From the NCBI GenBank assembly GCA_947570175.1, contig CANOTJ010000005.1:175-64174 (forward strand): DNA of 64,000 bases. Reading direction: 5' to 3'. Shown here piece after piece: positions 5,519 through 61,693 of the stretch; within the stretch, counting starts at the first letter, position 1; every line of letters begins with the position of its first letter. The notes under the pieces are model-generated. The model worked only from the letters and a program-made list of their open reading frames with translations, ran no database searches and was not told the DNA's origin. The stretch is from an uncultured Mycoplasmatota bacterium (GTDB lineage Bacteria; Bacillota_I; Bacilli_A; RF39; UBA660). A program made the translations under genes and the position numbers.

Positions 5519-5550
5519 AAAACTACACTGTAGTTTTTTTTTGGAATAAA
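5519..5550. terminator. bidirectional terminator hairpin (aaaactacactgtagtttttttttt)
   Basis: Perfect 8-bp stem (ctacactg/cagtgtag-like) flanked by A-run and T-run. Lies between convergent genes. Confidence 0.5.
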
Positions 5551-6694: not shown

Positions 6695-7756
6695 TCATTC
6701 CTTTAGTAAATATTGCACATTAAACTTTAAGAAATGATAAAACAACTTTTTCGTTTCTGGATCAATTTCCTTTATTTTCTTAATAATTCGAATTGCTTTC
6801 TTCACTTGAAAAAAATCACTTAAAATAGTAATACCACTATCATCCAAAGCTTGAAAAATACTAACGATCATTTTCTTTCGTTGCTCTCTATTATGATTAG
6901 AAAGCCATATGGCAATACTCCTTTCTAATTTTTGACTTACTTTACTTAAATTTGTTAATACAAAATGATCTTTTTTTATTTGCCATGTAAATAAAGAATG
7001 GGCCAAAAGGTCATGTTTTGATGATTTCACTACCATATAATCATAATCATGAAAAAGTAAAATACCAACAACACTAAAATTAGGAATGATATGAGTTAAT
7101 TTATTTTTGATCTGAAGATAATCTTTAGAATAAAATTGTTCTTCTAATATTCCAGGTCCATCGTTATTATAAATCTTTATAATCTTACGTTGTATCCAAT
7201 TCTTAGCATACATACTAGCAACCAAAGCCAAATTTCCACCCTTAGAATGGCCACCAACAATAATATGATCATCGCTAGTTTGTATCGTATTATTTAAATA
7301 ACGAATTGCTCGTTCTTGAGATTTTGTTGGAAATTGATAGGATAGTTCAAAATCTTCTCGCCATCCACTAATTAAATCATCAGTTCCCTCATAAGAGATA
7401 TAAATCTGTTGATTCGGAAAATCAAATCGTAAAGCAGAAAACTGTTTTTCCTTATCCCCCTCATATATATAATAACTCATCAAAACTGACTGATATCTTT
7501 TTTTTAAGGACAATTTTTTAAAAAAAGAATACCCCTGTTTTTGAGCGATTCCCTCTTTAGAAACATTTTCATAAGAATGCATAGAAAAATAAAGAGAACT
7601 AGCATCTTTTAAACAAATTCTTTTTCCATCAGATGGAACGATGTCATCAAAATCTAGATAAGCCAGAGAAGAAAAAATAATATTTTCAACATCATTGAAA
7701 CCTTTCTTTAAAAAACTAATTTCGCCATATAAATCGATATAATCATATAAATTCAT
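6695..7756 (-). CDS. DUF2974 (Mbeg1-like) alpha/beta-hydrolase, tandem paralog
   Basis: 353 aa. Collinear similarity to 5523..6599 throughout (same GHSKGGNLALVASMY, SLFTWQI and IIPN motifs). Confidence 0.7.
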   Translation of the reverse strand: MNLYDYIDLYGEISFLKKGFNDVENIIFSSLAYLDFDDIVPSDGKRICLKDASSLYFSMHSYENVSKEGIAQKQGYSFFKKLSLKKRYQSVLMSYYIYEGDKEKQFSALRFDFPNQQIYISYEGTDDLISGWREDFELSYQFPTKSQERAIRYLNNTIQTSDDHIIVGGHSKGGNLALVASMYAKNWIQRKIIKIYNNDGPGILEEQFYSKDYLQIKNKLTHIIPNFSVVGILLFHDYDYMVVKSSKHDLLAHSLFTWQIKKDHFVLTNLSKVSQKLERSIAIWLSNHNREQRKKMIVSIFQALDDSGITILSDFFQVKKAIRIIKKIKEIDPETKKLFYHFLKFNVQYLLKE

Positions 7757-11505: not shown

Positions 11506-12468
11506 TCACTTCATCATCACTATTTTTATTTCTATATCATTGTTCTTTATTTTCAAGTTACAATATGCACCTATTGGAATTGTAAACATTGGATTTGTAT
11601 GTCCAAAATCAACTCCATATACAATGGGAACATCTTTTAGTTTTTTCTTATTTTTAATAATAGTTTTTAACTTATCAACAGTCATATTACTGCATAACTG
11701 GAATCTGCCAAAAACAATTCCTTTTATTTTACAATTAGGTAATTGTAATAATGATTCTAAGTTTCTATCAAATTCTAATAAAAATACATCATTACCAAAG
11801 TCATCAGCATCGTCTTCAAGAAACAATATACTATCATTTAAATTGGGCATAAATTCTGTACCTTGCAATAAGTTGATAGTACATAAATTCCCGCCAATAA
11901 TTTTTCCAAAAGATTCACCATTTTGAATTGGTATCATCCCATCGTTTTTTAATGTAACTTTTTCCATTTTACCATTTACTTTTTTATAGTCATATATTTC
12001 CTTTGATGAATGAATCAAAAAATCGTTATTTTTTAATATTTTCTCAAAATATTGTAGAGTATATTCATTACCAGAACTAAAACCACTTAACATTGGGCCA
12101 TAGTATGTAGTTAAATTTGTTTTCTTCATAACTGCAATTAATAATGCTGTAATATCAGAATAACCGATAATCATTTTAGGATTCTGTTTAATAATCTTAT
12201 AATCAATATATGGAAGTATTTGATTAACATTATACCCTCCATTTACACATACGATTATTTCCACATTTTTATCTAAAAATGCATTCATTAAATCTTCAAC
12301 TCTATTTTCAATACTAGAACATCCAAAATAAATATCTTTATCAAAATTGTATTTTCCTACTGTTAATGAATAGCCTAAACTTTTAAAATATTCTCGAGCT
12401 TTTAATATTTTGATTTTATCGTTTTCAGATAAACTCATCGATGGAGCTATTAATCTAACTTCTTTCAT
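11506..12468 (-). CDS. LD-carboxypeptidase (peptidase S66; LdcA/MccF family)
   Basis: 320 aa. VCVNGGYNVNQILPYIDY and GYSDITALL segments match the S66 nucleophile region. Overlaps the upstream gene by 14 bp. Confidence 0.75.
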   Translation of the reverse strand: MKEVRLIAPSMSLSENDKIKILKAREYFKSLGYSLTVGKYNFDKDIYFGCSSIENRVEDLMNAFLDKNVEIIVCVNGGYNVNQILPYIDYKIIKQNPKMIIGYSDITALLIAVMKKTNLTTYYGPMLSGFSSGNEYTLQYFEKILKNNDFLIHSSKEIYDYKKVNGKMEKVTLKNDGMIPIQNGESFGKIIGGNLCTINLLQGTEFMPNLNDSILFLEDDADDFGNDVFLLEFDRNLESLLQLPNCKIKGIVFGRFQLCSNMTVDKLKTIIKNKKKLKDVPIVYGVDFGHTNPMFTIPIGAYCNLKIKNNDIEIKIVMMK

Positions 12469-20978: not shown

Positions 20979-23294
20979 CTAACATTGACATTTATATTCA
21001 TTCACTCTTTCAAGTGGAACACTATCGAATTCTTTACGCCCACATCCTGGACATACATCACCAATTACCCCAACGTATCCACAAACTGGATCTCGATCTA
21101 CAGGGTGATTAATAGCCCCATAACCGACTCCTTTATCTTTCATCATACGAATTACACTTTCAAATGCCTCTACATTTGTAGTTGTATCTCCATCTAATTC
21201 TATATAAGTAATATGACCCCCATTAGTTAAACTATGATAAGGTGCTTCAATTTCTAGTTTATGTTTAATACTTGTAGAATAATAAACAGGAACATGAAAC
21301 GAATTGGTATAATATTCTCGATCTGTTACTCCTTTTATTTTCCCAAAAATTGCCTTATCTATTCCAACAAATCTTCCTGATAATCCCTCTGCAGGTGTCG
21401 CAATCAATGTAAAATTTAAATTGTAATTTTTAGCATATTCATCACAACGATTTCGCATAAAACGAATAATTTCTAAACCCAATTTTTGAGCTTCTTCACT
21501 TTCACCATGATGTTTTCCGATCAAAGCTTTTAAACTCTCCGCAAGTCCAATAAATCCAATGGTTAAGCTACCATGTTTCAATAGTTTTCTTAAACGATCT
21601 CCTGGTTTCAATTTTTCTCCCGAAGCCCAAACACCTTGCTCTATCAAAAATGGAAAATTATAACAATGTTTACTACATTGAATTTCAAATCTTTCTAATA
21701 ATTGATCTCGTACAAGATCCATCATATCCCCCAGTTCTTGATAAAAATGATTCATATCTGCTTTATCACGTTCTTTTAAACAAATACCATTTCTAATTGC
21801 GATACGTGGAAGATTAATCGAGGTAAACGATAAATTTCCTCTTCCACCTGTTGTTTGATTATGCAAATCTGTCACATCACTCATTAATCGAGTACGACAG
21901 CCCATATAACCAACTTCTGTTCTATAATCTCCTTCTTTATAGAATTCTAAATTAAAAGGTGCATCTAGAAATGAGAAATTTGGAAATAATCTTTTAGCAG
22001 AAACTTTACAAGCTAACTGAAACATATCATAATTTTTATCTTCTGGGTTAAAGTTAACACCTTCTTTTACTTTAAAAATAGATACTGGGAAAATTGGTGT
22101 TTCTCCCTTTCCCAAGCCATCATTTGTAGCTAAAAGGAAATTCTTAATAACCATTCTTCCCTCTGCGGAAGTATCGGTTCCAAAGTTAATAGAAGAAAAT
22201 GGAACTTGAGCACCAGCTCTCGAGTGCATAGTATTTAAATTATGAACAAATGCTTCCATTGCCTGATAAGTTGTTCGATTCGTCTTTTGGACAGCTTTTT
22301 CATAACTTTTTTCAAACATTCTTTTAATTTGTTTAGATTCTTTATAAATTGGTTCAAAGATTGTAATATCAATTTCTAAGGTTGTTAATTTATCAATTTC
22401 TCGAATAATACGATCAATACTAATAAAACTTAACAAATCACTATAATCCAATAAATCATATATCTGTTGTTTAAATTGTTTTTTAAAAGTTTTTAATACT
22501 CCAGGGGCCATATAATAATCAAATGCGGGAATAGATTGCCCTCCATGCTGATCATTTTGATTGGACTGAATCGCAATCGCCGCAAGTGATGAATACGACA
22601 TAATATCTTTAGGACTTCGTAAATGACCATGTCCAGTAGAAAAGCCATTTTTAAATAAACGATCTAATTCAATCTGCATACAAGTAGTAGTCCCCATTGG
22701 TAAAAAATCCATATCATGAATGTGAATGTCTCCTTTGTCATGAGCCTCTGAAAATCTTTTTTTCATTAAATAAGATTTTGCAAATTCTTTAGAAATTGTA
22801 CTACCATATTGTAGCATTGTTCCCATTGCAGTATCCCCATCTACATTGGCATTTTCTCTTTTATTATTATCCTCATTAGCTGATTTTAATCCCAATCCTT
22901 CAATGGATTTTAAAAATTTATGTGTCTTTTTCTCATCAAAGAATAATTGTCTAGATTGAGTTCTTCTCTCGCGATATTCAGAAAAACTTTTATAAACTTC
23001 CTCATATCCCTTTTTTCGTAATTCGTCTTCAATCATATCTTGAATGGTTTCAATTTTAATTCTTCCTTTTTCTCGATAATTTCGCTCAATTTGTTTAATA
23101 GTTGCTTGATAAATCTTTTGAATATCTTTTTCATTATATTTTCTTACATGTTCCCCATTTTCATCTTCATATAAAATACTATCAAAACCTTTTTTAATAG
23201 CAATCGCAATTTTAGAACCATCAAAAGAAACTCTTTTTCCGTTTCTTTTTACTACTTCTAATGTTTCCAATACTTCTTCTTTTTCTACTACCAT
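20979..23294 (-). CDS. nrdD: anaerobic ribonucleoside-triphosphate reductase (class III RNR) catalytic body, terminating at an in-frame TAG before the glycyl-radical tail
   Basis: 771 aa. N-terminal ATP-cone-like region. Internal motifs typical of NrdD (TTTCMQIEL-like, GGQSIPAFDYYMAPG). C-terminal Cys cluster (CGYVGVIGDVCPGCG...CQC) ahead of the stop. Confidence 0.85.
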   Translation of the reverse strand: MVVEKEEVLETLEVVKRNGKRVSFDGSKIAIAIKKGFDSILYEDENGEHVRKYNEKDIQKIYQATIKQIERNYREKGRIKIETIQDMIEDELRKKGYEEVYKSFSEYRERRTQSRQLFFDEKKTHKFLKSIEGLGLKSANEDNNKRENANVDGDTAMGTMLQYGSTISKEFAKSYLMKKRFSEAHDKGDIHIHDMDFLPMGTTTCMQIELDRLFKNGFSTGHGHLRSPKDIMSYSSLAAIAIQSNQNDQHGGQSIPAFDYYMAPGVLKTFKKQFKQQIYDLLDYSDLLSFISIDRIIREIDKLTTLEIDITIFEPIYKESKQIKRMFEKSYEKAVQKTNRTTYQAMEAFVHNLNTMHSRAGAQVPFSSINFGTDTSAEGRMVIKNFLLATNDGLGKGETPIFPVSIFKVKEGVNFNPEDKNYDMFQLACKVSAKRLFPNFSFLDAPFNLEFYKEGDYRTEVGYMGCRTRLMSDVTDLHNQTTGGRGNLSFTSINLPRIAIRNGICLKERDKADMNHFYQELGDMMDLVRDQLLERFEIQCSKHCYNFPFLIEQGVWASGEKLKPGDRLRKLLKHGSLTIGFIGLAESLKALIGKHHGESEEAQKLGLEIIRFMRNRCDEYAKNYNLNFTLIATPAEGLSGRFVGIDKAIFGKIKGVTDREYYTNSFHVPVYYSTSIKHKLEIEAPYHSLTNGGHITYIELDGDTTTNVEAFESVIRMMKDKGVGYGAINHPVDRDPVCGYVGVIGDVCPGCGRKEFDSVPLERVNEYKCQC

Positions 23295-23999: not shown

Positions 24000-25469
24000 A
24001 TGGAAAAAATAGACATTATTAAAAGTATTACTGAAAGAACTGGTGGAGATATCTATCTAGGTGTTGTTGGAGCTGTCCGAACAGGAAAATCAACTTTTAT
24101 AAAGAAGGTAATCGAAACCCTTGTCGTTCCAAATATTGAAGACGAATATGAAAAAAAACGTGCGCTAGATGAGATTCCACAAAGTGCTCAAGGAAAGACA
24201 ATTATGACAACAGAGCCAAAATTTGTACCAAGTAATGCAGCGAAAATACAAATCGATACTTTTGAATCAAGTATTCGACTTGTAGATTGCGTAGGATACG
24301 TAATTCCTGGTGTAAAAGGATATGAGGATGAAAATGGACCTAGAATGGTAAAATGTCCATGGTATGACGAAGAAATACCGTTTGTTGAAGCTGCCGAAAT
24401 TGGAACAGAAAAAGTGATTCGTGATCACTCTTCAATTGGAATTGTTGTTACTACAGATGGATCTTTCAATGAAATATCGCGTGAAAATTATGTAGAAGCC
24501 GAAGAACGTGTTATTCACGAATTAAAAGAAATTGGAAAACCATTTATTGTAGTATTAAATTCTAATCATCCAATGTTACCAGAAACAGAACGTTTAGCAG
24601 AAAAATTAAGAGAGAATTATGAGGTGCCTGTTCTTCCAATTAGTGTTGAGAATATGACAGATCATGATATTTATAGTATTTTAAGAGAAGCATTATATGA
24701 ATTTCCAGTAATGGAAGTAAATGTTAACATGCCAGAATGGATTGCTTGCTTATCTCCTAATAATTGGTTGAAAAAAATTTATATTGATAAAATTAGGGAA
24801 AGCGTTATAGAGATTGATAAACTACGTGACATTGATACCATTACAAATCATTTTAATGATTCGGAATATATCAGCAAATCCTATTTATCAGAAGTAGATA
24901 CTTCAACCGGAGTTGTTACATTGACATTAGAAGCCCCAGATGGTCTTTATAATCAAGTATTAAAAGATATTATTGGAATGGATATCACCAGTAAAGCAGA
25001 CTTACTAAAACTCTTCCAGGATTATAATGAAGCAAAAACGGAATATGATCAAATTAAGGGTGCCTTAAAAATGGTCAAACAAACTGGTTATGGAGTAGCT
25101 TCTCCTAGTTTAACAGATATGAAATTAGATACTCCAGAAATTATTAAACAAGGAAGTAGATATGGAATCAAATTAAAGGCGGTTGCTCCTTCTATCCATA
25201 TGATACGGGTAGATGTAGAATCAACATTCGAACCTATTATCGGATCTGAAATTCAAAGTAAAGAATTAATTGATTACTTAATGAAAGACTCAGAAACAGA
25301 AGAAATTTGGAAAAGTGAAATTTTTGGACGTAGTCTAGATGTAATTGTCAAAGAAGGAATTCAAGCAAAACTTTCCCTTCTTCCAGAAAACGCTAGATTC
25401 AAATTACAACAAACATTATCAAAATTGGTAAATAAAGGTTCTGGAAATTTATTTGCAATTGTTTTATAA
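24000..25469 (+). CDS. spoIVA: stage IV sporulation protein A (spore coat morphogenetic ATPase)
   Basis: 489 aa. The N-terminus MEKIDIIKSITERTGGDIYLGVVGAVRTGKSTFIKK carries a Walker A motif and is near-identical in pattern to Bacillus SpoIVA. Conserved throughout its length. Confidence 0.9.
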   Translation: MEKIDIIKSITERTGGDIYLGVVGAVRTGKSTFIKKVIETLVVPNIEDEYEKKRALDEIPQSAQGKTIMTTEPKFVPSNAAKIQIDTFESSIRLVDCVGYVIPGVKGYEDENGPRMVKCPWYDEEIPFVEAAEIGTEKVIRDHSSIGIVVTTDGSFNEISRENYVEAEERVIHELKEIGKPFIVVLNSNHPMLPETERLAEKLRENYEVPVLPISVENMTDHDIYSILREALYEFPVMEVNVNMPEWIACLSPNNWLKKIYIDKIRESVIEIDKLRDIDTITNHFNDSEYISKSYLSEVDTSTGVVTLTLEAPDGLYNQVLKDIIGMDITSKADLLKLFQDYNEAKTEYDQIKGALKMVKQTGYGVASPSLTDMKLDTPEIIKQGSRYGIKLKAVAPSIHMIRVDVESTFEPIIGSEIQSKELIDYLMKDSETEEIWKSEIFGRSLDVIVKEGIQAKLSLLPENARFKLQQTLSKLVNKGSGNLFAIVL

Positions 25470-32896: not shown

Positions 32897-34987
32897 CTAT
32901 GGATACATCGAAAAATAAGCATCGCTAACTGCTTTCGCAATTCTTTTATTAACGGTACTTTGATAAGTACTACCTGTTTCTGAATAATAAATATCTGGTG
33001 AAATCACAGTAAAAGTTATTTTAGGGTTGTCATAAGGCGCATAAGCAACAAAAGTAGTAGTAACTGTTTCTTTATCTACTTTTCCATCCCCATCACTATC
33101 AATAAAACTTTGACTAGTTCCCGTTTTACCAGCTGGTTTATAAGACAAATCAATATATCCTGAGCCAGTTCCTCCATATTCTAAAACTTGTTTAAAGCCC
33201 TCTTTTACTCGCTCTAAATATTCTGGTTTTGTATCTACCTTATTTAATTCTTTCACTTCCTTTGTAAATTTTACTTTTTCTAAGTTACCATCAGTCGAAG
33301 AATAGACATTTTTTAACAAATATGACTGCATACGACTTCCGTTATTTGCAATAGTTCCAATATACTGTGATAATTGAATAGGTGTATAAGTATCGTATTG
33401 ACCAATCGAAAAATCTAAAAGAAGTCCGCCAACTTTGCTTTCACCTTTATATCCTAAACTTTCAACTGGTAAATCTATTTCTGTTTTTACCCCTAAACCG
33501 AATTGTGCAAAGGTATTGCGATAGATATCAAAGGCATTATTATCTACTCTAAATGGTGTATCGTAAGTATAATTTACTCCAGCTAATTTCATTGCTGTAT
33601 AAAATTGATAAACATTTGAGGATAATTTTAAAGCTGTCAAATCATTAACATTTCCTAAGTTTCTCCAAGAACATTTTTGAGGAGCTCCCGCTAGTTTAAT
33701 ACAAGAATCATAACGTCTTTCTCCTATTTGTAAGTTACCAGTATTATATCCTACAATATGGGAAGCTCCCTTTACAACTGATCCCACAACTACTGGAGAA
33801 GTTGTAATTCCTGGTGTATAATCATATACTTTATATTCTCCATTTTCTTCTTTTACTTGCTTTCCTGCCATTGCAAGAATCTCACCTGTTTTTGGATCCG
33901 ATATAATAACAAATGAGCGATTATAATACATAGTATTCGGTTCTTTTTTTGTGGCGCTTACTTCATTTGTTAAAATCTCCTCTACCTTTTTTTGAAGTTC
34001 CATATCAATTGTCAACATGATATCATTTCCACGACTACCCTCTTTTGTTAATACTTTCTCTCCATTATCTAATACTTCATATTGATTTTTAACTCCTCTT
34101 AAATAGTCGTCATATTGGTATTCTAAGTAACTTACCCCAACCCGGTCATTTAAATTATATCCTTTTTTTAAATATTCTTCTTTTAAATCTGAAGGAATTC
34201 CTTTTTCTGAATCACTCACGCCTCCTAAAATCGCTCGAAAAGTATCCCCATACAAGTAGCTTCGATTCCAATCTAATCTAGTATTAAAACCCTTTAAATG
34301 ATGGGTGTTGCTAGCAACACTCGCAAATTCTTGATCAGTCACATTATCCTTTTTAATTACCTTGTCTGCATAAGAATATCCTTTATTCATTAAGTAGTAG
34401 ATATAAGCGGCTTCTCTATCTCTATCCTGATAAGCTCCTAATTCTTCTTCTGTAACTCGTTCGAATTTTAATTCTTCTATGTCATCTGCTGTAATTTTAC
34501 GATATTCTAAATCTTGCCATTCTGATTTTTTTATTTTTTTCTTTGCCTTATCTAGATTATTTTTTACCCAAAATTTACGAAGGTTTTTATCTGTTAATTT
34601 TGAAAAATCCACTTCTATTAAATCTGCCATTTGATAAGCTAATTTGACTTCTTCTGTCGCAGTAACCTGATTTTCTTTTTTATAATAAATTTCCTTATTT
34701 GGTTTGTTATCGACTATTAGTCTTTTATTTCGATCATAAATACGTCCACGTGGTGCGGTTGATCCATCAATAATATTCTTATTTAAAATTTCTAATTTAT
34801 CCTTATAATATTCATTTTTGATTACTTGAATATAAAATAAATTAATAAATAAAATGATAATTACTAACGTAATAACTCCGATTAATATATTGTATCTTTT
34901 TTCGATTATTTCTTTAATATCCTTATATTTTTTATAATAATTATATTTGATATTAACAGTACTTTTTTTCTTAAATATTTTGTTCAT
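32897..34987 (-). CDS. class B penicillin-binding protein (peptidoglycan D,D-transpeptidase, PBP2/FtsI-like)
   Basis: N-terminal TM helix, dimerisation domain, and transpeptidase motifs SVVK (SxxK), SSN (SxN) and KTGT. 696 aa. Confidence 0.85.
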   Translation of the reverse strand: MNKIFKKKSTVNIKYNYYKKYKDIKEIIEKRYNILIGVITLVIIILFINLFYIQVIKNEYYKDKLEILNKNIIDGSTAPRGRIYDRNKRLIVDNKPNKEIYYKKENQVTATEEVKLAYQMADLIEVDFSKLTDKNLRKFWVKNNLDKAKKKIKKSEWQDLEYRKITADDIEELKFERVTEEELGAYQDRDREAAYIYYLMNKGYSYADKVIKKDNVTDQEFASVASNTHHLKGFNTRLDWNRSYLYGDTFRAILGGVSDSEKGIPSDLKEEYLKKGYNLNDRVGVSYLEYQYDDYLRGVKNQYEVLDNGEKVLTKEGSRGNDIMLTIDMELQKKVEEILTNEVSATKKEPNTMYYNRSFVIISDPKTGEILAMAGKQVKEENGEYKVYDYTPGITTSPVVVGSVVKGASHIVGYNTGNLQIGERRYDSCIKLAGAPQKCSWRNLGNVNDLTALKLSSNVYQFYTAMKLAGVNYTYDTPFRVDNNAFDIYRNTFAQFGLGVKTEIDLPVESLGYKGESKVGGLLLDFSIGQYDTYTPIQLSQYIGTIANNGSRMQSYLLKNVYSSTDGNLEKVKFTKEVKELNKVDTKPEYLERVKEGFKQVLEYGGTGSGYIDLSYKPAGKTGTSQSFIDSDGDGKVDKETVTTTFVAYAPYDNPKITFTVISPDIYYSETGSTYQSTVNKRIAKAVSDAYFSMYP

Positions 34988-43346: not shown

Positions 43347-44552
43347 TTAATATTTTGTCATTCTATTATTAAATGGAACTCCTAACGCTGGAAAATTAAT
43401 AACGCTTCTTGGATTAATTGAATATGTGTAATTCATTAAATTCCAAGCACCTGCCCCTTTATAGTCAATTCCATAAAGACCAGTAGCCACCGTTAAGTGA
43501 AGATGGGCCCCTCCTGTACAACGATCATAAGAAGCAGTACTACCTCCACCTGAAGCACCAATTACCGTATTACTAGTAACATTTTGTCCCTCTGAAACAC
43601 TAATAGATAATAAATGGGCATAAACACTAGTATAGGTTTTTCCATTAATTTTATGGTGTACAACAACCATATTTCCACCACAACTATATCGATGCATAAT
43701 TAAAGCTACTTGTCCTGTTCCAATCGCATAAACAGTATTTCCTTCTCTTACACCCATATCAATTCCTTCATGAAAGGATTTACCTTGATAATATCTCGTT
43801 CCCCATTCACTAGTAACTCTTCCAGACACGAGTGGTCGATAGAAGGCTGTCCCTGCAGGAAGTAATCCTCTACTACATTCTGCGATATCATCATTCGATT
43901 TACATCCCATTTTCTTATAATTATCCACAATCTTTTGTTGCGCTTTTACATCATCCGCTTGTGATACGCTAACAGCTTTAATATCTTCCATTTCCTTTCC
44001 TAATTTAGAAAGTTCCCCAGTTAATTGTTGTTGCTTTTCACCTAAGGATACACGTTTACTTTGAATTTGTTTTTGTTTCTCTTTATTATCACTAATCATT
44101 TTATTAAATTCTGAGATTTTTGCATCATTATGATCAGAAAGTTGTTCTGTAACCGCCATACGATAAATAAAACTCTCCCAATCACTTGCTCCAGAGACAT
44201 ACTCTAAAGTAGCGGATTCTCCATTAGAAACTTGCAAATAACTAATAATTTCTTTGATTTCCTTTTCTGCATTAGAAATATTTGTATTTAGTTTTTCTAT
44301 TTGTTCATCTAAACTGGCAATATCTTTATAAGTTTGACTAATTTCATTTTTAATATTGGAAATATTTTTATTTACGGAATTAATTTCTGCCTGTGTTTGA
44401 GCCTTTTTAGCATTGGTATCTTTTAATTCACTTTGACGTTTGTTTAATTCCTTTTCTAAATCTCCTAATGTCTCTGCTTTTACTTCTGGTACATAAAACA
44501 TCGGTGTTATTGTAATTACTAATACCGATAAACTTACAAATAATTTTTTCAT
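43347..44552 (-). CDS. M23 family peptidoglycan metalloendopeptidase with N-terminal coiled-coil (EnvC/murein hydrolase activator-like architecture)
   Basis: Signal peptide and long coiled-coil. C-terminal M23 motifs (HEGIDM with His and Asp; AHLHL His-x-His). 401 aa. Confidence 0.8.
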   Translation of the reverse strand: MKKLFVSLSVLVITITPMFYVPEVKAETLGDLEKELNKRQSELKDTNAKKAQTQAEINSVNKNISNIKNEISQTYKDIASLDEQIEKLNTNISNAEKEIKEIISYLQVSNGESATLEYVSGASDWESFIYRMAVTEQLSDHNDAKISEFNKMISDNKEKQKQIQSKRVSLGEKQQQLTGELSKLGKEMEDIKAVSVSQADDVKAQQKIVDNYKKMGCKSNDDIAECSRGLLPAGTAFYRPLVSGRVTSEWGTRYYQGKSFHEGIDMGVREGNTVYAIGTGQVALIMHRYSCGGNMVVVHHKINGKTYTSVYAHLLSISVSEGQNVTSNTVIGASGGGSTASYDRCTGGAHLHLTVATGLYGIDYKGAGAWNLMNYTYSINPRSVINFPALGVPFNNRMTKY

Positions 44553-48044: not shown

Positions 48045-49037
48045 TTATAGCCATACAGCAAACAATACTCCTAACATTGCAAATACAATTCCAAAAAACC
48101 AAAACACTTTTACAATGTCCTTCTCATCCCATCCCAATTTTTCAAAATGATGGTGAAGAGGAGTCATTAGAAAGATTTTCTTTCCTTTCCACATAATTGA
48201 TATTGTTTGAATAATACATACTAATGTTTCGATAATAAATACAGAAGAAATAATGATGAAGGTAATCTCATGATTCGTAATAATCGCAATCGTTGCTAGA
48301 GTTGCTCCTAAGGATAAAGAGCCTGTATCCCCCATAAATATTTTAGCTGGATTGGTATTAAAAAACAAAAAACCAAGAAGAGATCCTACTAATACAAAAC
48401 AGAAAACAGCAATTGCTGAAGACCCTGCTACCCATGTAGAATTCCAACTAATTAATCCAAAGGCTAAAAAAGCAATTAAAGAAAGTCCTCCAGAAAGACC
48501 ATCTAAGCCATCTGTAATATTCACAGCATTACTACTTGCTACTAACATAAATAATAGGAAAATCCCATAAAACCATCCCATATGAATATGAATATTTAAG
48601 GTATGAATATCTAAACTTGGACTATTTCCACTAGACATAAAAATATAAAAGAAGATAACAGCTATAAATAACTGGCCAAATAATTTTTGAAGTTCTGTTA
48701 ATCCAATATTATTTTTTCTTTTGATAATTAAATAATCATCTATAAATCCAAGTATCCCATAAGCAATAAATACAAATAAAATAATAAATAGATTATCACT
48801 AAATTCTATTTTCCTTAAAAAAAGTAAAATTAATACTGTAATAATGGTTGGAATTATGAAAATTAAACCTCCCATAGTTGGTGTTCCTTCTTTTTCTTTA
48901 TGCTTTTCTTTTAAAAATATACTTACACTTTGTTTTACCTTTTTTGTTTTTAAAATTGGAATTAATATAAATCCAAATAGGACAGATATAATAAAGCCAA
49001 TCATCAAAGCAAGTATTGCTTTTGTTAAAACTAACAC
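48045..49037 (-). CDS. mraY: phospho-N-acetylmuramoyl-pentapeptide transferase
   Basis: 10 TM helices. NAVNITDGLDGL and DTGSLSLG motifs. 330 aa. Confidence 0.9.
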   Translation of the reverse strand: MLVLTKAILALMIGFIISVLFGFILIPILKTKKVKQSVSIFLKEKHKEKEGTPTMGGLIFIIPTIITVLILLFLRKIEFSDNLFIILFVFIAYGILGFIDDYLIIKRKNNIGLTELQKLFGQLFIAVIFFYIFMSSGNSPSLDIHTLNIHIHMGWFYGIFLLFMLVASSNAVNITDGLDGLSGGLSLIAFLAFGLISWNSTWVAGSSAIAVFCFVLVGSLLGFLFFNTNPAKIFMGDTGSLSLGATLATIAIITNHEITFIIISSVFIIETLVCIIQTISIMWKGKKIFLMTPLHHHFEKLGWDEKDIVKVFWFFGIVFAMLGVLFAVWL

Positions 49038-49041
49038 AAAA

Positions 49042-50427
49042 TCATCTCCTTGTGTATGACTGAAGTTGGTTTAAATATTCTAATACAACTTCTTTATCAT
49101 TAAACGGTATTATTTGTCTATTTTTTCCAATAATTCCTTCTTCATGCCCCTTTCCAAGAATCAATAGAAGATCATTATTTTCTAATCGTTGAATTGCTTT
49201 ACAAATAGCTTCTTTTCGATCTAAACAAATCTCATAATTACCAAATTCCGCATTTTTAAATGTATCTTCTACAATTTGGTTTGGATCCTCATCATGAGGA
49301 TCATCTGTTGTAAAAATAAAATAATCTGATAATTCACTAACTAATTTGCTCATTATTGGTCGTTTCATACGGTCACGTTCCCCAGTACATCCAAATACTA
49401 CATAAGTCTTTCCCTTTGTAAATTGTTTCATGGTTGTAATAATTTTTTGAATAGCATCTGGTGTATGAGCGTAATCAATAACAATATTATTTGTATGGTA
49501 TTTAATGATTTCTGCTCTACCCACAGGAGCATTTAATTGTCTGGCAACCTCTATAATACTAGAATCAGAATAACCCATGCATTTTAATAAACCAATGCAC
49601 GCTGCCATATTATAAATGTTATAATCTCCTAGCAATTTCATTGTTACAGAATATTCGCCCTTGTGATCTTTATACTTAAAAATAGTATGTTCACTACTTA
49701 ATGTGTAGTCCACGATTTGTAAATCACTTATATTCTCTCCATATGTAAAATTTTGATTATGTTCTAATAAAAAATAGTCTTTATAGTAATCATCATGATT
49801 AATGATAGCAATTCCATTTGGTTTTAATTTCTGAAATAATTTTTGCTTTGCTAAGGCATAATTCTCCATTGTTTTATGGAAATCTAAATGATCTTGGGTA
49901 AGATTTGTAAAAATAGTATAATCAAACTCCAAAGTTTCGATACGCCCATTAGCAAGCGCATGACTACTAATTTCTATTACTACGTTTTTGCACCCTTGAT
50001 CATATGCTTCTATAATTAAATCATACATATCACAAAGATCAACACTAGTATTTGGTAAATTTTTTATTTTTTTATTAATATAAAATCCTACTGTTCCAAT
50101 ATAAGCACATTTAGAGTTCAATTGATTTAATGCATCATGAATTAACATTGCTGTAGTTGTTTTTCCATTAGTACCTGTTATTCCTATAATATTCATTTTA
50201 TTCAAAATTGGATTATAATGTTCTTTTAGATACTCATTTAAATACATTCTAGTATTCTCAACTATCTGTGTTTCAACAGAATAGTTTCCATGTTCAACAA
50301 TCACCTTTTTAGCTCCATTTTCAATTGCCTTTTCGACATATTGATGTCCGTCATTAACCTCACAACGAACAGCTATAAAAGTATCACCTGGTTTTATTTT
50401 TCTAGAATCACTTTGAATATTTATCAT
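49042..50427 (-). CDS. murE: UDP-N-acetylmuramoyl-tripeptide synthetase (MurE)
   Basis: The ORF track extends to 50490. The likely start is the internal MINIQSD (ATG at 50427). GITGTNGKTTT P-loop. Mur ligase middle and C-terminal domains. Confidence 0.85.
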   Translation of the reverse strand: MINIQSDSRKIKPGDTFIAVRCEVNDGHQYVEKAIENGAKKVIVEHGNYSVETQIVENTRMYLNEYLKEHYNPILNKMNIIGITGTNGKTTTAMLIHDALNQLNSKCAYIGTVGFYINKKIKNLPNTSVDLCDMYDLIIEAYDQGCKNVVIEISSHALANGRIETLEFDYTIFTNLTQDHLDFHKTMENYALAKQKLFQKLKPNGIAIINHDDYYKDYFLLEHNQNFTYGENISDLQIVDYTLSSEHTIFKYKDHKGEYSVTMKLLGDYNIYNMAACIGLLKCMGYSDSSIIEVARQLNAPVGRAEIIKYHTNNIVIDYAHTPDAIQKIITTMKQFTKGKTYVVFGCTGERDRMKRPIMSKLVSELSDYFIFTTDDPHDEDPNQIVEDTFKNAEFGNYEICLDRKEAICKAIQRLENNDLLLILGKGHEEGIIGKNRQIIPFNDKEVVLEYLNQLQSYTRR

Positions 50428-50501
50428 ATTACCACACTCTCTAAACATAATAATTTTACTATAAATTATATAATTAATCAAGAACAACAAAAAAACAAGA
50501 A

Positions 50502-55626: not shown

Positions 55627-56238
55627 CTAATTCGCTCCTAAAATGGTATAAATATAATAAAATATAAAACTTAAAATTGCAATGACTATTATATTATAAA
55701 AAATATTGTTTTTCAAGCATTGTGGCAATCGATCTCGAAGAAAGTAAATAAAACGATAAAGATAAAAACCAAATAGTCCCCCTAACACATTCAACATAAT
55801 ATCATCTACATCAAATACTCTCCCTATTAATAATTGGGTAAATTCAATAGTACAAGAAACAAGTAAACTTAAATAAAAAATAATTCTTTTTTTATCTAGT
55901 TTTAGAAAATAAGAGGTAAAAAAACCATATGGCATAAACATAATCATATTTCCAACTACATTTCTAAAAAATCTTTCACTAAAAATTCGATAACGAAACA
56001 TTTCTTTAAATGGAATAAAATTAGAAGTAGACCAACTAACATCTTGGAAAGTTACCACATAGAAAAGACTCATAATATAAATTACAAAACCAAGTTTTAA
56101 AATCTCACGATATAAAATAAAATTTTCATGATTTTTTACTAAATATACAATTCTAATAGATGACAAAATAACTGTAATAATTACGAGCATCGGCCAAATA
56201 TTCGCTAATATGTTTTTAATAGTAATATCAAACATCAT
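55627..56238 (-). CDS. VanZ-like family membrane protein
   Basis: 203 aa with 4-5 TM helices. Pattern typical of VanZ-like proteins (YGFFTSYF, GRVFDVDDIMLNVLGGLFGF). Confidence 0.6.
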   Translation of the reverse strand: MMFDITIKNILANIWPMLVIITVILSSIRIVYLVKNHENFILYREILKLGFVIYIMSLFYVVTFQDVSWSTSNFIPFKEMFRYRIFSERFFRNVVGNMIMFMPYGFFTSYFLKLDKKRIIFYLSLLVSCTIEFTQLLIGRVFDVDDIMLNVLGGLFGFYLYRFIYFLRDRLPQCLKNNIFYNIIVIAILSFIFYYIYTILGAN

Positions 56239-56241
56239 CTC

Positions 56242-57432
56242 TTATTCTCCCTCTTTGATTTGAGTCTCCTCTGGAACAATTTCCTTTGTATCTGTAATAT
56301 CTTCACATACACTAAAAAATATCTCTACTACTATTTTACTATCATTTTGTTCAACATTCAATTGTTTATAATCAATTATATATTCATTGTCATTTAATTT
56401 ACTCTCAATTTGCACTTTAGCACGACCAATTGCTTTCTTGATAGCTTCCTCTTTTGTATACTTTTCATCAATAACTTTCGTTTCTGTTTGTTTTTGTTTT
56501 ACTAGTTGTATAGGAAGAAGGTTATTTTTTAAAAGTATTTTTTCTTTTATATTCTTTGTTTTATAACGATTCCACTCTATACTAAAATATCGATTTAAAA
56601 ATTTAATGGCATAGACTGTTTTGTTTTTATTTAAAGGGATTGTCTCTTGATAATGTAAAGGGTATTCCACCGTTGTTTTATACCAAACTTCTCCATATAT
56701 TTTTCCATTTGCTCCAATTAAGTTTTTAGTAACTTCATTTAGTTGAATATCCCCAGTAATAACAACATCCCCCTTATTAACATAATCATTTACGTTTTTT
56801 ACAATTTCCCCAGAAGAAGCATTAATTTTTTTTAAAATTGCAGATTTTTTAGCCACTATATTTTGTATTGGAATTAAATTTTTAGATTTCGTAATAATTC
56901 TTTCTTCTACTCTTACAATGTATTTCGTTCCTTCTTCTTCTATTTCCAACCATTCTATTTGATCCTTATACTTATTAATAATTTTTTTCTTTATACTTTG
57001 AATAGAGGAATAACTTTTTTTAAAATGTTTTTCTTCTATTCCATATTCTTTTAATTCGTCTCTTAAAAGATTACGAATTTCTTTATTATTATGAACAATT
57101 TCAATTTTAAAAATCATATGTGTTAATAATTGAAGGATAATATATCCAATTATAATGGAAATAAATAAGTATTGATTTTTTTTGATGAGTTTTTTCAGTT
57201 TATCCAATCCAAATGTATCAATTTGTTCAATTTCATAAATTGTTTTTATTTCTTCTACTTTTTCTAAATCCTTTTTATATATTTTTAGAATTGCTTCGTT
57301 ATAATGAACTATTTTAAGATCTAGTATCTCTATATTCAATCGAATTACTTTTTTTAAGAATCGCTCTATGTTTTTTCCCTGAATTCTTATCTTCACGGAG
57401 CTTTTTAGTTGATTTATAAATTCATTTTTCAA
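56242..57432 (-). CDS. yqfD: sporulation protein YqfD
   Basis: 396 aa. Conserved position downstream of yqfC and upstream of ybeY. One TM helix near residue 90. Architecture typical of YqfD. Confidence 0.7.
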   Translation of the reverse strand: MKNEFINQLKSSVKIRIQGKNIERFLKKVIRLNIEILDLKIVHYNEAILKIYKKDLEKVEEIKTIYEIEQIDTFGLDKLKKLIKKNQYLFISIIIGYIILQLLTHMIFKIEIVHNNKEIRNLLRDELKEYGIEEKHFKKSYSSIQSIKKKIINKYKDQIEWLEIEEEGTKYIVRVEERIITKSKNLIPIQNIVAKKSAILKKINASSGEIVKNVNDYVNKGDVVITGDIQLNEVTKNLIGANGKIYGEVWYKTTVEYPLHYQETIPLNKNKTVYAIKFLNRYFSIEWNRYKTKNIKEKILLKNNLLPIQLVKQKQTETKVIDEKYTKEEAIKKAIGRAKVQIESKLNDNEYIIDYKQLNVEQNDSKIVVEIFFSVCEDITDTKEIVPEETQIKEGE

Positions 57433-57436
57433 AAAA

Positions 57437-57676
57437 TCACCTTAATTCTACATTTTTTATTTTTCCTGTTATTAAAACCTCATCTACTAGTAATTTAGAT
57501 ACTACTAACTTTTCTCCATTTACAATAATATTTCCTTTCTCATGGCGAATAATAATTTTATTAGAATCAAAATGCCCAATTTCCTTATAATTTGCGATAT
57601 TTACACAATCCTCTAATATTGTGATCTTTAGCTCATCATCCAAAATATAATCTCGAAACCTATTTACAATTCCCAT
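57437..57676 (-). CDS. yqfC: sporulation protein YqfC
   Basis: 79 aa. The IIVNGEKLVVSKL pattern is similar to Bacillus YqfC (ILVKGEKL). Adjacent to yqfD. Confidence 0.65.
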   Translation of the reverse strand: MGIVNRFRDYILDDELKITILEDCVNIANYKEIGHFDSNKIIIRHEKGNIIVNGEKLVVSKLLVDEVLITGKIKNVELR

Positions 57677-57759
57677 ATTATCACCTATATAATCTTATTA
57701 AATTAATGGGGTATTTATGTGCAAACAAAAAAAGTTCAAAATTTTGAACTCTTCTATAA

Positions 57760-59823
57760 TTATGGCAGTAATTCATCTGGTAAATCTGGGGTCTCCGGTA
57801 CAGTCGGTTCCTGTTCCTTTGTACAAACACCATCTATTTTTTCATAACCTGGTTTACATAAACAAGTTACTCCATCAGCTCCTAATTCCTCATTTGTTCC
57901 ACATGTTATTTGTTTTTTTGTACAAACACCATTTACTTTTTCATAACCTGGTTTACATAAACAAGTTACTCCATCAGCTCCTAATTCCTCATTTTCTTTG
58001 CATGTTATTGTTTTTTTTGTAGTCTCTTTAGTAGTATCATCTTTCTTTGTACATACTCCATTCACTTTTGAATAGCCATTTTTACATACACAGCTTACTC
58101 CATCAGCTCCTAATTCCTCATTTGTTCCACAATTTTTTGTATCAGATTTTCTTTTTGAAGATGAATCATAGCTTTGCATTCTACCAGTTAGTCCTTGTCC
58201 AATTACTTCCTGTTCATACTCCTGATCAATTCGGAAACTAAAATCTTTAATAACTTCTGGATCTTCTAATCCTAAATTAATTTTCATAGCACTAATTACA
58301 GCATCTAAACTTTCATTGGATAAAACATAATTATATAAATCTAAGCCAGTTCTTGGATCGTAAATATAAGCATCTTTTCCACTTAAATATAATCGTTGAA
58401 TTCCAAGCAAATCTTCTACTTCTCCACCACTACTTTTTACGATAATATCTTTTCCTATATTATATAATGATAAAATTTCATTTCTAGTCATATTAGTTTC
58501 CATACTGTTACTCACAGTATCTAATAATTTATAAACTGTATCAATATTTCGAACCTGTTTGATTTTATTCATTAGCGCTCTAACAACTGTTTGTTGATTT
58601 TGGCCTCTAATAAAATCATTACTAGTATAATTACTATATTTTTTGCCACAATAAGCAGGCCAAGGATGTCGATTTCGAGAAAAGGCTAAAGCTTTTTCTC
58701 CATCTAATGTTTGAAATCCTTTATCAATATAAACTGTTCCATTTCCAAACTCACGATTACTATTCTGTTCACATAACGAATAAGGAACGTCCACATCTAC
58801 TCCGCCCAATGTATCTACTAGTTTTACAACTCCTTTAAAATTGATTTTTACATAATAATCAATATCAATTCCTGTAAAATTTTCGATCGTTTTTATCATA
58901 CAATCTTGTCCATACCATGCAGCATGAGTAATTTTATTTTTTCTCTGTCCGGCAAAACACATAATAGGAACGTAAGAATCACGTGGTATACTAAGCATTG
59001 TTGTATTTAACGTTGTTGGATTAAAAGTAATTAACATTAATGAGTCACCATTAAAACTACTACTTGCAAGATTCTCATTTTCTGAATCTACTCCCATTAA
59101 AAGAATTGTAAAAGGGCGATTTAAAGTTGTACTTCTTTTAGATTTAGAAGAATTTTTCTTAACCTTTTTTTCTTTTGTATAAATGATTTTTGTATCCTCA
59201 CTTAAATTACTTAATTCTGCTTCTTCTACGTTTTGAAACATTACTGTATAATTCGTTGGAAGAAGTGCATATTCTATTTCATTATCATACAATCCCTTTA
59301 ATAATGAAATGTAACTTTCATACTCCAGTATTTCATTACTTAATTTTTGTTCTTTTATAATTTCTTTTGGAATTACATACCCATCGATACTGGTATCATC
59401 TGCAAGCATTCCAATTTTTCCATCTTTTACTTTACTAATATCATCTATTTTATTATCAGATAATGTAATAAGACTACTTGAATAAGTCGTAGAATCAGTA
59501 GTCATATTCCCTATAATATTATAAGTCTTAATAATATAAAAAGCTCCTACACATAAAATAGTTGCATAAACAATCGTAACTGGAATGAAAATTCCATATT
59601 TACTTTTTTGTTTTTTAACTGTTCCTTTATAGCAAATAAAGAAAATAATCCAAATAATTACAAGAGCTATTGCAATGAATAATCGTAGACGATTTTCTAT
59701 GTTATTTAATAGAGCAATTGCATAAAGTAAATATCCAGTAGCAAATGTATTAATTAAAAATGTTAGCACTACTATTAATGCTTTTAATTTATTTGTTTTA
59801 AAAAGTTGGAATAATCCTTTCAT
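57760..59823 (-). CDS. LytR-CpsA-Psr (LCP) family protein with N-terminal TM helices and three C-terminal Cys-rich ~34-aa tandem modules
   Basis: 687 aa. LCP core (LLMGVDS...SIPRDSYV). C-terminal repeats CGTNEELGADGV[ST]C[VL]CK[NP]GY[SE]K[VI][ND]GVCTK in three copies. Confidence 0.8.
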   Translation of the reverse strand: MKGLFQLFKTNKLKALIVVLTFLINTFATGYLLYAIALLNNIENRLRLFIAIALVIIWIIFFICYKGTVKKQKSKYGIFIPVTIVYATILCVGAFYIIKTYNIIGNMTTDSTTYSSSLITLSDNKIDDISKVKDGKIGMLADDTSIDGYVIPKEIIKEQKLSNEILEYESYISLLKGLYDNEIEYALLPTNYTVMFQNVEEAELSNLSEDTKIIYTKEKKVKKNSSKSKRSTTLNRPFTILLMGVDSENENLASSSFNGDSLMLITFNPTTLNTTMLSIPRDSYVPIMCFAGQRKNKITHAAWYGQDCMIKTIENFTGIDIDYYVKINFKGVVKLVDTLGGVDVDVPYSLCEQNSNREFGNGTVYIDKGFQTLDGEKALAFSRNRHPWPAYCGKKYSNYTSNDFIRGQNQQTVVRALMNKIKQVRNIDTVYKLLDTVSNSMETNMTRNEILSLYNIGKDIIVKSSGGEVEDLLGIQRLYLSGKDAYIYDPRTGLDLYNYVLSNESLDAVISAMKINLGLEDPEVIKDFSFRIDQEYEQEVIGQGLTGRMQSYDSSSKRKSDTKNCGTNEELGADGVSCVCKNGYSKVNGVCTKKDDTTKETTKKTITCKENEELGADGVTCLCKPGYEKVNGVCTKKQITCGTNEELGADGVTCLCKPGYEKIDGVCTKEQEPTVPETPDLPDELLP
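57825..58140. repeat. three tandem, near-identical ~105-bp direct repeats, coding for the Cys-rich modules of the LCP protein
   Basis: Read directly: ccatctattttttcataacctggtttacataaacaagttactccatcagctcctaattcctcatttgttccacatgttatttgtttttttgtacaaacacc recurs with few substitutions. Confidence 0.7.
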
Positions 59824-60976: not shown

Positions 60977-61693
60977 TTAATAGGATTCAATAGGCCTTTT
61001 AGCTTTAAGATGTTTAAATTTTCTGTATCCACAAGCAGTATGTTTGATTTGTTTAATAACATTATTGGTACCTTCTACAATTCCATTAGAATATTGATAG
61101 TCAAAAGCATTTAAAATATAGTTTCCCATATTTTTAAGAGTTTTAATAGCTTTTTTCATATATTTAGAAATTTTAATATTTTTGCCATTTATAATGCTTT
61201 TAAATATATCTTTATTTCTAATATTAATGGAGTATAAAATCGGTTGATATACTTGATAAGTTTCATACAATTCTTCATTTGTATTTATTAAATAAGTAAC
61301 AATGTCATATTGAGAAATTTCTTTCTTAAAACAGTTTTGATATTTTTTATTTTCTCTATTTAATTCACGCTTATCTTTTAAAATTAATTTCCAATATTTT
61401 TTGAGTTTTCTATAATTAGGATTGGATTTAACAGATAACTTGATTCTAGTTTTATCTAAAGCATTTCTAACCTGTATAACAATGTGAAATCTATCTGGAA
61501 TTAAAATGGCATTTCTAAATAAAGAATGCATTAATTTATAATAAGGCTTATATAAATCTAAGGTAATAAATTTAACATTATCTCTTTCTTTTTTAGAGTA
61601 ATGTTTAAAATACTTTTCTATATCAATAGATTTTCTACTATTATTAATATCAAAAATATTTTTATTAGTATGATCAACAATAATGAATGCCAA
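60977..61693 (-). mobile_element. ISL3-family transposase, 5'-truncated remnant (C-terminal DDE domain only)
   Basis: 238 aa. Matches the C-terminal half of ISL3 transposases (LDLYKPY, IPDRFHIV, GIVEGTNNVIKQIK, ACGYR). Upstream sequence (61694-61780) carries frameshifted fragments (MSRK*) in place of the N-terminal zinc-finger/HTH half. Confidence 0.65.

Follow-up and report, generated by a model that had tools for sequence, protein, structure and literature searches.

A Cps2A-type LCP transferase with three four-cysteine modules in its C-terminal tail from an uncultured Mycoplasmatota bacterium

What are three copies of a small cysteine-rich module doing at the C terminus of a cell wall enzyme? 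The question is raised by a stretch of 64,000 nucleotides (nt) from contig CANOTJ010000005.1 (GenBank assembly GCA_947570175.1) of an uncultured Mycoplasmatota bacterium, here called the window, in which the minus strand encodes a 687-amino-acid (aa) glycopolymer transferase of the LCP (LytR-CpsA-Psr) family ending in three such modules. Members of this family couple glycopolymers such as teichoic acids and capsules to peptidoglycan, and their positioning in the wall is poorly understood. The modules probably constitute an interchangeable, wall-facing targeting or spacer tail of a membrane-anchored transferase of the Cps2A type. The enzyme family is well known; the more interesting fact is the exchange of the cysteine-rich cassette with PASTA domains, which lies in the relatives of the window protein. 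A preliminary description of the window had reported three nearly identical 105-bp repeats and had read them as a recent duplication and a contingency-like locus. Its structural observation holds, and the inference of recent duplication and contingency fails for the window.

The enzyme, the repeat, and the fold of the module

The 687-aa protein was assigned to the LCP family by several matches. PF03816 aligns with aa 259 to 422 (E value of 5.6e-41, 140.6 bits against a cutoff of 24.6), and TIGR00350 scores 113.5 bits against a cutoff of 62.3. Solved LCP structures match the protein with E values of 1e-33 to 1e-6, the best being Cps2A from Streptococcus pneumoniae (PDB 2xxp), which phmmer aligns with aa 106 to 457, covering the accessory and LCP domains, at an E value of 1.3e-33. 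These matches bear out that the modules are appended to an LCP enzyme. The CpsA equivalog model NF051849 aligns with aa 16 to 455 and misses its threshold; because its 171.8 bits are far under the cutoff of 650, the protein is not shown to be a CpsA orthologue. Invariant arginine and aspartate columns are numerous among 26 orthologues (for example, R281, D282, R383, R385, and R406) and may include the residues with which LCP enzymes bind the pyrophosphate-lipid and Mg2+. Public data hold a protein that is 100% identical to the window protein (P0001). LCP enzymes attach undecaprenyl-phosphate-linked glycopolymers to peptidoglycan (PMC7831098).

The N-terminal region contains three hydrophobic segments (aa 13 to 37, 42 to 70, and 74 to 100), and AlphaFold2 places helices at aa 12 to 38, 44 to 70, and 79 to 107. 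Since the N terminus and the loop at aa 66 to 78 are rich in lysine and arginine and are thus expected in the cytoplasm, the protein following residue 100 should lie outside the cell. The catalytic domain and the C-terminal tail are therefore both predicted to be extracellular.

At the DNA level, the tail is encoded by three direct copies of a 99-nt unit spanning 57812 to 58138, which is where the preliminary description had placed them (Table 1). The starts of the copies are spaced by 99 nt and then by 129 nt, the second spacing being longer because a 13-aa linker, DDTTKETTKKTIT, separates modules 1 and 2. Relative to the reference copy, the other two show identities of 91% and 81%, so that only two copies form a close pair. 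Tandem Repeats Finder likewise retrieves these two alone (57818 to 58021, period of 99, 2.1 copies, 91% matches, score of 345). The best pair has 90 of 99 bases in common; when the region was shuffled 200 times, the shared bases averaged 48 and never exceeded 54, and the repeat is therefore not due to chance. Neither the proposed unit of 105 bp nor the near identity of the copies was recovered. The expected modules of approximately 34 aa give way to a protein periodicity of 33 and 43 aa, that is, a 30-aa module with linkers of 3 and 13 aa, and the module sequence quoted earlier mixes modules 2 and 3.

Two open reading frames (ORFs) run along the plus strand opposite the modules, and stop-free antisense stretches are seen again opposite the modules of other strains. 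Because purifying selection acts on the minus-strand frame (see below), these ORFs are by-products of the repeat, as had been supposed.

Each module carries four cysteines with the spacing C-x12-C-x-C-x10-C, a motif found in no other ORF of the window. The orthologues supplied 63 distinct module sequences, whose cysteines are most often spaced 12/1/10 and whose consensus reads C-G-T-N-E-E-L-G-A-D-G-V-[TS]-C-[VL]-C-K-x-G-Y-x-K-V-N-G-x-C. The core of the module (NEELGADG...CxCKxGY) is nearly invariant between species. As a matter of speculation, its acidic NEELGADG hairpin might serve as a loop that binds a ligand or a cation.

A single module (module 3), modeled by AlphaFold2 with an alignment of 53 module sequences, yielded an ordered fold of two consecutive β-hairpins with a predicted local distance difference test (pLDDT) score of 92.1, the strands being formed by residues 8 to 10, 17 to 19, 23 to 26, and 29 to 32. 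The full-length model has a mean pLDDT of 61 and again shows four strands in each module, with pLDDT below 50 at aa 524 to 561, ahead of module 1. In a Foldseek comparison with the PDB, the nearest folds are all small disulfide-rich hairpin modules (TMq of 0.6 to 0.75, E values above 1), namely, the TNFR cysteine-rich domain of DcR3 and the EGF domains of NELL1, PvRipr, Pfs25, factor VIIa, and MSP1. Sequence matches to the C-terminal half of the module (CxCxxGYxxxxGxC) are all weak and comprise the cysteine-rich region of EphA2, the TIL-type inhibitor IMPI, and TGF-alpha.

Profile searches gave a divided answer on EGF-like character. On the full protein, the Pfam EGF models stay under their cutoffs (hEGF, 25.9 against 29.3; EGF, 17.9 against 21.5; cEGF, 16.3 against 26.6). 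On the tail alone, the EGF model narrowly passes with a sum score of 22.9, and hEGF and cEGF still fall short. When the tail and other repeat-bearing proteins were scanned against Pfam and NCBIfam, no family model for the module rose above cutoff, and the scores for EGF, TIL, TNFR, DUF5874, and ADGRF3_N were weak; PF03793 (PASTA) has no match in the tail of the window protein. The canonical EGF pattern has six cysteines paired C1-C3, C2-C4, and C5-C6; the module has four, the C1-C3 pair being absent. The two-hairpin fold of EGF, with the minor sheet carrying CxCxxG[YF]...GxC, is present in the predicted structure. The module as modeled may thus fairly be described as EGF-like with the first disulfide missing, a statement of resemblance and not of membership in the EGF family. 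In this sense, motif and predicted fold agree with the earlier characterization as four-cysteine EGF-like modules. Within each module, the cysteines are most likely paired in two disulfides.

The module is not confined to LCP enzymes. Searching its profile against 1.84 billion cluster representatives retrieved 545 proteins at an E value of ≤0.001, many of them long and with 4 to 30 copies (for example, CGxNExxxxxGxCxCxxGYxRxxxGxC). The carriers include a subtilase lipoprotein (P0158), PAAR proteins (P0169 and P0183), P0155, P0197, ankyrin-repeat proteins, a DUF11 protein, and one protein with myxobacterial cysteine-rich repeats. For many of the non-LCP carriers, the domains present suggest an origin in outer-membrane bacteria. 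The NEELGADG signature, for its part, is nearly confined to LCP tails. In metagenome contigs scanned with a narrow module alignment, 39 of 41 confirmed matches fall at the 3' ends of LCP orthologues; one of the two others lies on an 851-kb contig (L130, OIXQ01000001.1) and is a 793-aa non-LCP protein ending in CGQHEERNTYGTCVCKNGYSKVNGVC. The viral contigs scanned contain no module, and a homology search with the tail alone gave 12 matches, nearly all of them pieces of the same LCP tails. As a repeat, the four-cysteine module appears to be widespread among bacteria, and neither Pfam nor NCBIfam offers a model that attains its cutoff on it.

Two further observations concern the tail. In several orthologues (L003, L004, P0011, P0022, P0040, and P0049), the four-cysteine module is followed by a second module with two cysteines, CVxExxxYYWYDxxGxKNxTxYxDxTC, which has no Pfam match. 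The C-terminal motif PDLPDELLP/PDLPDELMP (57760 to 57790, aa 678 to 687 in the window protein) is kept across species and in two of three cassette alleles. The orders RFN20 and ML615J-28, related to the host, are reported to be without sortases (PMC10868615).

Age of the triplication and exchange of tails among relatives

Five members, drawn from independent assemblies (NCBI, ENA, and Logan), make up the cluster of the window protein at 90% identity; each is 687 aa long and has three modules. DNA for comparison came from four loci representing two variants (L087 to L089, encoding P0122, and L090, encoding P0123). The proportion of synonymous differences (pS) is 0.23 to 0.28 in the enzyme body, 0.30 to 0.44 in the modules, and 0.29 to 0.44 in the whole tail including linkers; the corresponding ratios of nonsynonymous to synonymous differences (pN/pS) are 0.04 to 0.05, 0.03 to 0.09, and 0.09 to 0.14. 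As judged from these substitution patterns, the modules are conserved functional domains under purifying selection. Across nine modules from three strains, orthologous modules differ at 5 to 13 of 90 nt (5 to 7 relative to L087 and 8 to 13 relative to the more diverged L090), compared with 9 to 18 of 90 nt between paralogous modules inside the window. Because all five variants have three modules and a module resembles its orthologues more closely than its paralogues, the triplication is older than the split of the strains. Recent duplication is thus rejected by the module distance matrix, the more so as the same-species variants have diverged to a pS of 0.23 to 0.44 and still all carry three modules.

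The copies have not evolved entirely independently. Modules 2 and 3 of the window differ at 9 nt, whereas the same pair in other strains differs at 15 to 19, and an identical 28-nt block common to all three window modules is missing from module 2 of the other strains. This suggests a short gene conversion tract in the window strain, where the 5' half of module 2 looks homogenized with modules 1 and 3. Parallel changes at the same position of different modules in P0123 (G to E at residues 575 and 651, V to I at residues 633 and 666) likewise point to gene conversion between modules.

Copy number varies in sister lineages and is fixed in the species of the window (five of five variants), so that the proposal of a copy-number-variable locus applies to the former and not to the latter. 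L081, with three modules of identical protein sequence, and L082, with one, have flanks of 100% identity that extend for 4.2 kb on the upstream side and 2.6 kb on the downstream side, and the difference in module number could reflect collapse in short-read assembly. In a human gut lineage, a 723-aa protein with four modules and a 689-aa protein with three differ by an exact in-frame deletion of 102 nt in a background that is approximately 98.8% identical. The occurrence of the three-module form on two backgrounds, in three assemblies altogether, argues for a real allele. The pattern is repeated in a second lineage, with proteins of 736 and 702 aa.

Replacement of the whole tail cassette is a larger source of variation than copy number. 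A sister species from the human gut, 76% identical to the window protein, has three tail alleles of 689, 692, and 707 aa. In 60-nt windows, these alleles are 96 to 100% identical in the enzyme body and in the downstream yqfC gene, and 27 to 52% identical over 240 to 360 bp of the later modules. By module content, the alleles (L083, L086, and L001) comprise three canonical modules, one canonical module with two of the form CTIPNRIQNADGSCSSECESGY, and two canonical with two divergent modules, and the boundaries are sharp.

The exchange also involves a different domain. The DNA encoding P0013, with two cysteine modules, and that encoding P0070, with one PASTA domain, is approximately 99% identical over 3.1 kb, including an upstream O-antigen-ligase-like gene, except for a cassette of approximately 330 bp, in which identity falls to 27 to 52% before resuming in the last ~100 nt of the gene. 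These two alleles are those of L132:1501-3465 and L133:1501-3516, both with the O-antigen-ligase-like gene upstream; a gene of the FtsW/RodA/SpoVE family follows the LCP gene in L133, and the L132 contig stops just past the LCP gene. Among the 120 closest cluster representatives, 27 carry the cysteine module (one copy in 14, two in 8, three in 4, and four in 1), and the remaining 93 do not and mostly have PF03793. In L026, L058, L076, and L108, a PASTA domain is followed by one module. Depending on the orthologue, the tail position is occupied by cysteine modules (one to four), by PASTA domains (one to several), or by both.

Role of the tail and competing explanations

PASTA domains in penicillin-binding proteins (PBPs) and Ser/Thr kinases bind peptidoglycan or muropeptides. 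Because PASTA domains are peptidoglycan binders and share both the tail position and the cassette exchange with the cysteine modules, the general purpose of the two would be the same. Three small, independently folding four-cysteine modules joined by flexible T/K-rich linkers make up the C-terminal tail, predicted to be extracellular, which would act, as PASTA does, as a rigid, wall-facing stalk holding or positioning the catalytic domain at peptidoglycan or nascent glycan. The repeat in the DNA stems from an old triplication of the module with some later gene conversion between copies. Unequal recombination between copies would occasionally change their number, and homologous recombination in the conserved flanks would replace the cassette as a whole.

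Several points weigh against this proposal. Within the full-length model, the modules reach a pLDDT of only 57 to 78, and Foldseek with a single module retrieves nothing from the PDB at an E value of ≤0.001, a result that is unsurprising for a query of 34 residues. Positional equivalence with PASTA is the sole ground on which the modules may be taken to bind peptidoglycan. No thiol-disulfide oxidoreductase was found among the approximately 45 window ORFs scanned against Pfam and NCBIfam, which cover 64 kb of the genome only, and Firmicutes tend to keep cysteine out of exported proteins (PMC2823432). Finally, the sharp cassette boundaries and the excess of amino acid change in the linkers fit diversifying selection equally well.

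The last point leads to the strongest competitor, which has a modest chance of being correct: the tail would be mainly a variable region exposed at the surface and subject to diversifying selection, for example as a receptor for phages or a target of antibodies, in which changeability itself is selected and module content is secondary. Cassettes of 27 to 52% identity inside genes that are otherwise 98 to 100% identical, found in two lineages, would be expected of such a region, as would alleles with three modules versus one and four versus three. Among same-species variants, moreover, the last 19% of the protein holds 40 to 47% of the amino acid differences, and pN/pS is higher in the tail than in the body (0.09 to 0.14 versus 0.04 to 0.05). 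However, the modules themselves are strongly conserved (pN/pS of 0.03 to 0.09), their NEELGADG...CxCKxGY core hardly changes between species, copy number is fixed in the window lineage, pN/pS never comes near 1, and no phage contig scanned encodes the module. Selected changeability could also hold alongside a targeting role. It is conceivable, at a similarly low level of confidence, that the C terminus is a population-level cassette site at which recombination swaps EGF-like modules and PASTA domains and unequal crossing-over lets module number drift, the exposed tail being under phage or host antibody pressure. In that case, a biosynthetic enzyme would also serve as a variable surface determinant.

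A second alternative concerns the chemistry of the module. Its cysteines might bind a metal such as zinc instead of forming disulfides, giving a rigid knuckle that can fold in an anaerobe without a disulfide system. The host is an anaerobe, as indicated by NrdD, and it belongs to a lineage that tends to exclude exported cysteines and is often without Dsb systems (PMC2823432); the lack of an oxidoreductase gene among the ORFs scanned points the same way. This explanation is nevertheless improbable, because the spacing C-x12-C-x-C-x10-C, the CxCxxGY...GxC motif, and the two-hairpin fold match the disulfide-bonded EGF, TIL, and TNFR modules and not CxxC...CxxC zinc ribbons, and because related repeats occur in secreted proteins apparently of outer-membrane bacteria (PAAR, lipoprotein subtilase, and myxobacterial-repeat domains). 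If disulfides are indeed formed, an anaerobic bacterium of the Firmicutes lineage folds disulfide-bonded EGF-like modules extracellularly, against the usual exclusion of exported cysteines in its group.

It is very improbable that the locus is a phase-variable contingency locus, or that it encodes an EGF-like adhesin mimicking host ligands and binding host receptors. Copy-number variation in sister lineages, the animal and human gut hosts, and the EGF-like motif are compatible with these ideas. Units of 99 to 129 nt that stay in frame inside the coding region, however, make a frameshift switch impossible, and all five variants of the window lineage have kept three modules, which removes the ground for calling the locus contingency-like. 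Mimicry fares no better, since the first EGF disulfide is missing from the module, every EGF model scores below cutoff on the full protein, and exchange with PASTA points toward the wall and not toward the host. Least credible of all is an assembly artefact by expansion or collapse: repeats of approximately 100 nt can misassemble, and the L081/L082 pair comes from short-read assemblies, but the window copies differ by 9 to 19%, enough for an assembler to resolve, and five distinct 687-aa variants from independent assemblies each carry three modules with position-specific differences, on which ground the artefact was rejected.

The relatives amount to a natural experiment in which the same backbone carries PASTA, one to four EGF-like modules, or both, swapped between alleles that are approximately 99% identical elsewhere. 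These natural swaps make the role of the C-terminal extension, and the substitution of cysteine modules for a peptidoglycan-binding domain, directly testable. The tail also exemplifies the export of many cysteines by an anaerobic organism of the Firmicutes lineage.

Host, gene neighborhood, and comparison with known systems

The window has a G+C content of 27.9%. Directly downstream of the LCP gene lie yqfC and yqfD, and the window contains genes for a VanZ-like protein, YbeY, and a diacylglycerol-kinase-like protein. The order LCP-yqfC-yqfD-vanZ-like-ybeY is kept both within the species of the window and in its sister species, so that a wall polymer ligase adjoins sporulation genes. The window also encodes a set of wall proteins (Table 1), found here in a small-genome "Tenericutes-like" lineage, and a GT2 glycosyltransferase. 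Taken together, the wall genes, the genes for SpoIVA, YqfC, and YqfD, and the gene for the anaerobic ribonucleotide reductase NrdD indicate a walled anaerobe that forms spores; the host belongs to an uncultured lineage of gut Bacilli. Related uncultured orders (RFN20, RF39, and ML615J-28) are predicted to be a mix of walled sporulating and wall-less species (PMC10868615). Among species-representative genomes, the closest are bins assembled from gut metagenomes of human, deer, rabbit, mouse, and chicken, with a best match of 76% identity. Their titles name uncultured Tenericutes, Bacilli, or Erysipelotrichaceae bacteria, Firmicutes CAG:822, and Candidatus Coprosoma; complete chromosomes, of 1.2 to 1.5 Mb, are available for several of them.

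Just upstream of the LCP gene lies a fragment of an ISL3-family transposase, whereas in the sister lineages L081 and L085 a serine recombinase/resolvase is found there instead, indicating that the LCP gene borders a variable region. Elsewhere in the window, two paralogous Mbeg1-like genes are adjacent to each other.

Table 1. Features of the LCP gene and of other loci in the window; positions are those of the window
Feature	Position	Strand	Residues or length	Basis or remark
LCP (LytR-CpsA-Psr) glycopolymer transferase gene, Cps2A-like architecture	57760-59823	-	687 aa	ORF, Pfam, NCBIfam, PDB match
Three transmembrane helices	59524-59787	-	aa 13-100	Hydropathy, K/R counts, AlphaFold2
Accessory domain, boundary approximate	59119-59508	-	~aa 106-235	Aligned to 2xxp residues 8-329 and NF051849 positions 14-419
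LCP catalytic domain	58558-59049	-	aa 259-422	Pfam PF03816
S/K-rich low-complexity linker preceding module 1	58132-58188	-	aa 546-564	Sequence
Module 1, CGTNEELGADGVSCVCKNGYSKVNGVCTKK	58042-58131	-	aa 565-594	Sequence; four short strands in full-length AlphaFold2 model
T/K-rich 13-aa linker, DDTTKETTKKTIT	58003-58041	-	aa 595-607	Sequence; pLDDT <50 at aa 595-606
Module 2, CKENEELGADGVTCLCKPGYEKVNGVCTKK	57913-58002	-	aa 608-637	Sequence
3-aa linker, QIT	57904-57912	-	aa 638-640	Sequence
Module 3, CGTNEELGADGVTCLCKPGYEKIDGVCTKE	57814-57903	-	aa 641-670	Sequence
C-terminal end, QEPTVPETPDLPDELLP, and stop codon	57760-57813	-		Sequence
Three direct copies of the 99-nt unit	57812-57910, 57911-58009, 58040-58138		99 nt each	
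Antisense ORF, repetitive translation	57717-58022	+	101 aa	Repeat by-product; ORF list
Second antisense ORF	58047-58241	+	64 aa	Repeat by-product; ORF list
yqfC-yqfD-vanZ-like-ybeY	55627-57676	-		Order kept in same and sister species
Class B PBP without PASTA, MraY, Mur ligase, LD-carboxypeptidase, M23 peptidase	32897-34987, 48045-50490, 11506-12468, 43347-44552	-		Wall genes
SpoIVA	24000-25469			
NrdD (anaerobic ribonucleotide reductase)	20979-23294			
ISL3-family transposase fragment	60977-61693	-	238 aa	Model positions 140-366 of 370
Mbeg1-like paralogous pair	5523-6599, 6695-7756	-		PF11187, E values of 4e-61 and 2.5e-64

A literature search for LCP enzymes with PASTA or EGF-like tails returned nothing relevant, and a review of LCP enzymes mentions neither such a cysteine-rich tail nor PASTA; the earlier remark that cysteine-rich modules on an LCP enzyme are unusual is thus supported by their absence from that review. 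The closest characterized relative is Cps2A/CpsA (Wzg) of S. pneumoniae (2xxp and 3tep), which, like the window protein, has three N-terminal transmembrane helices followed by extracellular accessory and LCP domains. Cps2A ends soon after the LCP domain, whereas the window protein adds approximately 100 residues, a low-complexity linker, and three four-cysteine modules. PASTA-tailed LCP orthologues from uncultured gut Bacilli (for example, P0070, P0058, and L005 to L080) belong to the same family at 51 to 65% identity and have their tail at the same position, formed by one or more PF03793 domains instead of or besides cysteine modules. The synteny LCP-yqfC-yqfD-vanZ-ybeY is common to the window and its closest module-bearing relatives.

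For the module itself, the nearest counterparts are eukaryotic EGF-like domains (EGF, hEGF, and cEGF), TNFR domains, and the C-terminal half of TIL domains, which have in common with it the CxCxxG[YF]xxxxGxC motif, two β-hairpins, and a length of approximately 30 residues. The module differs from eukaryotic EGF in having four cysteines and not six, in the absence of the C1-C3 pair, and in being bacterial. Other bacterial four-cysteine repeat proteins match the same module profile but carry the repeats on proteases, PAAR, ankyrin, and DUF11 proteins and not on LCP enzymes. As a repeat in DNA, the locus recalls the alpha C/Rib surface proteins of Gram-positive cocci, in which long in-frame repeats change in number by recombination between copies. 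Those repeats are of approximately 79 aa, virtually identical in DNA, and located in LPXTG-anchored adhesins, whereas the window copies differ by 9 to 19%, are stable within the lineage, and belong to an enzyme.

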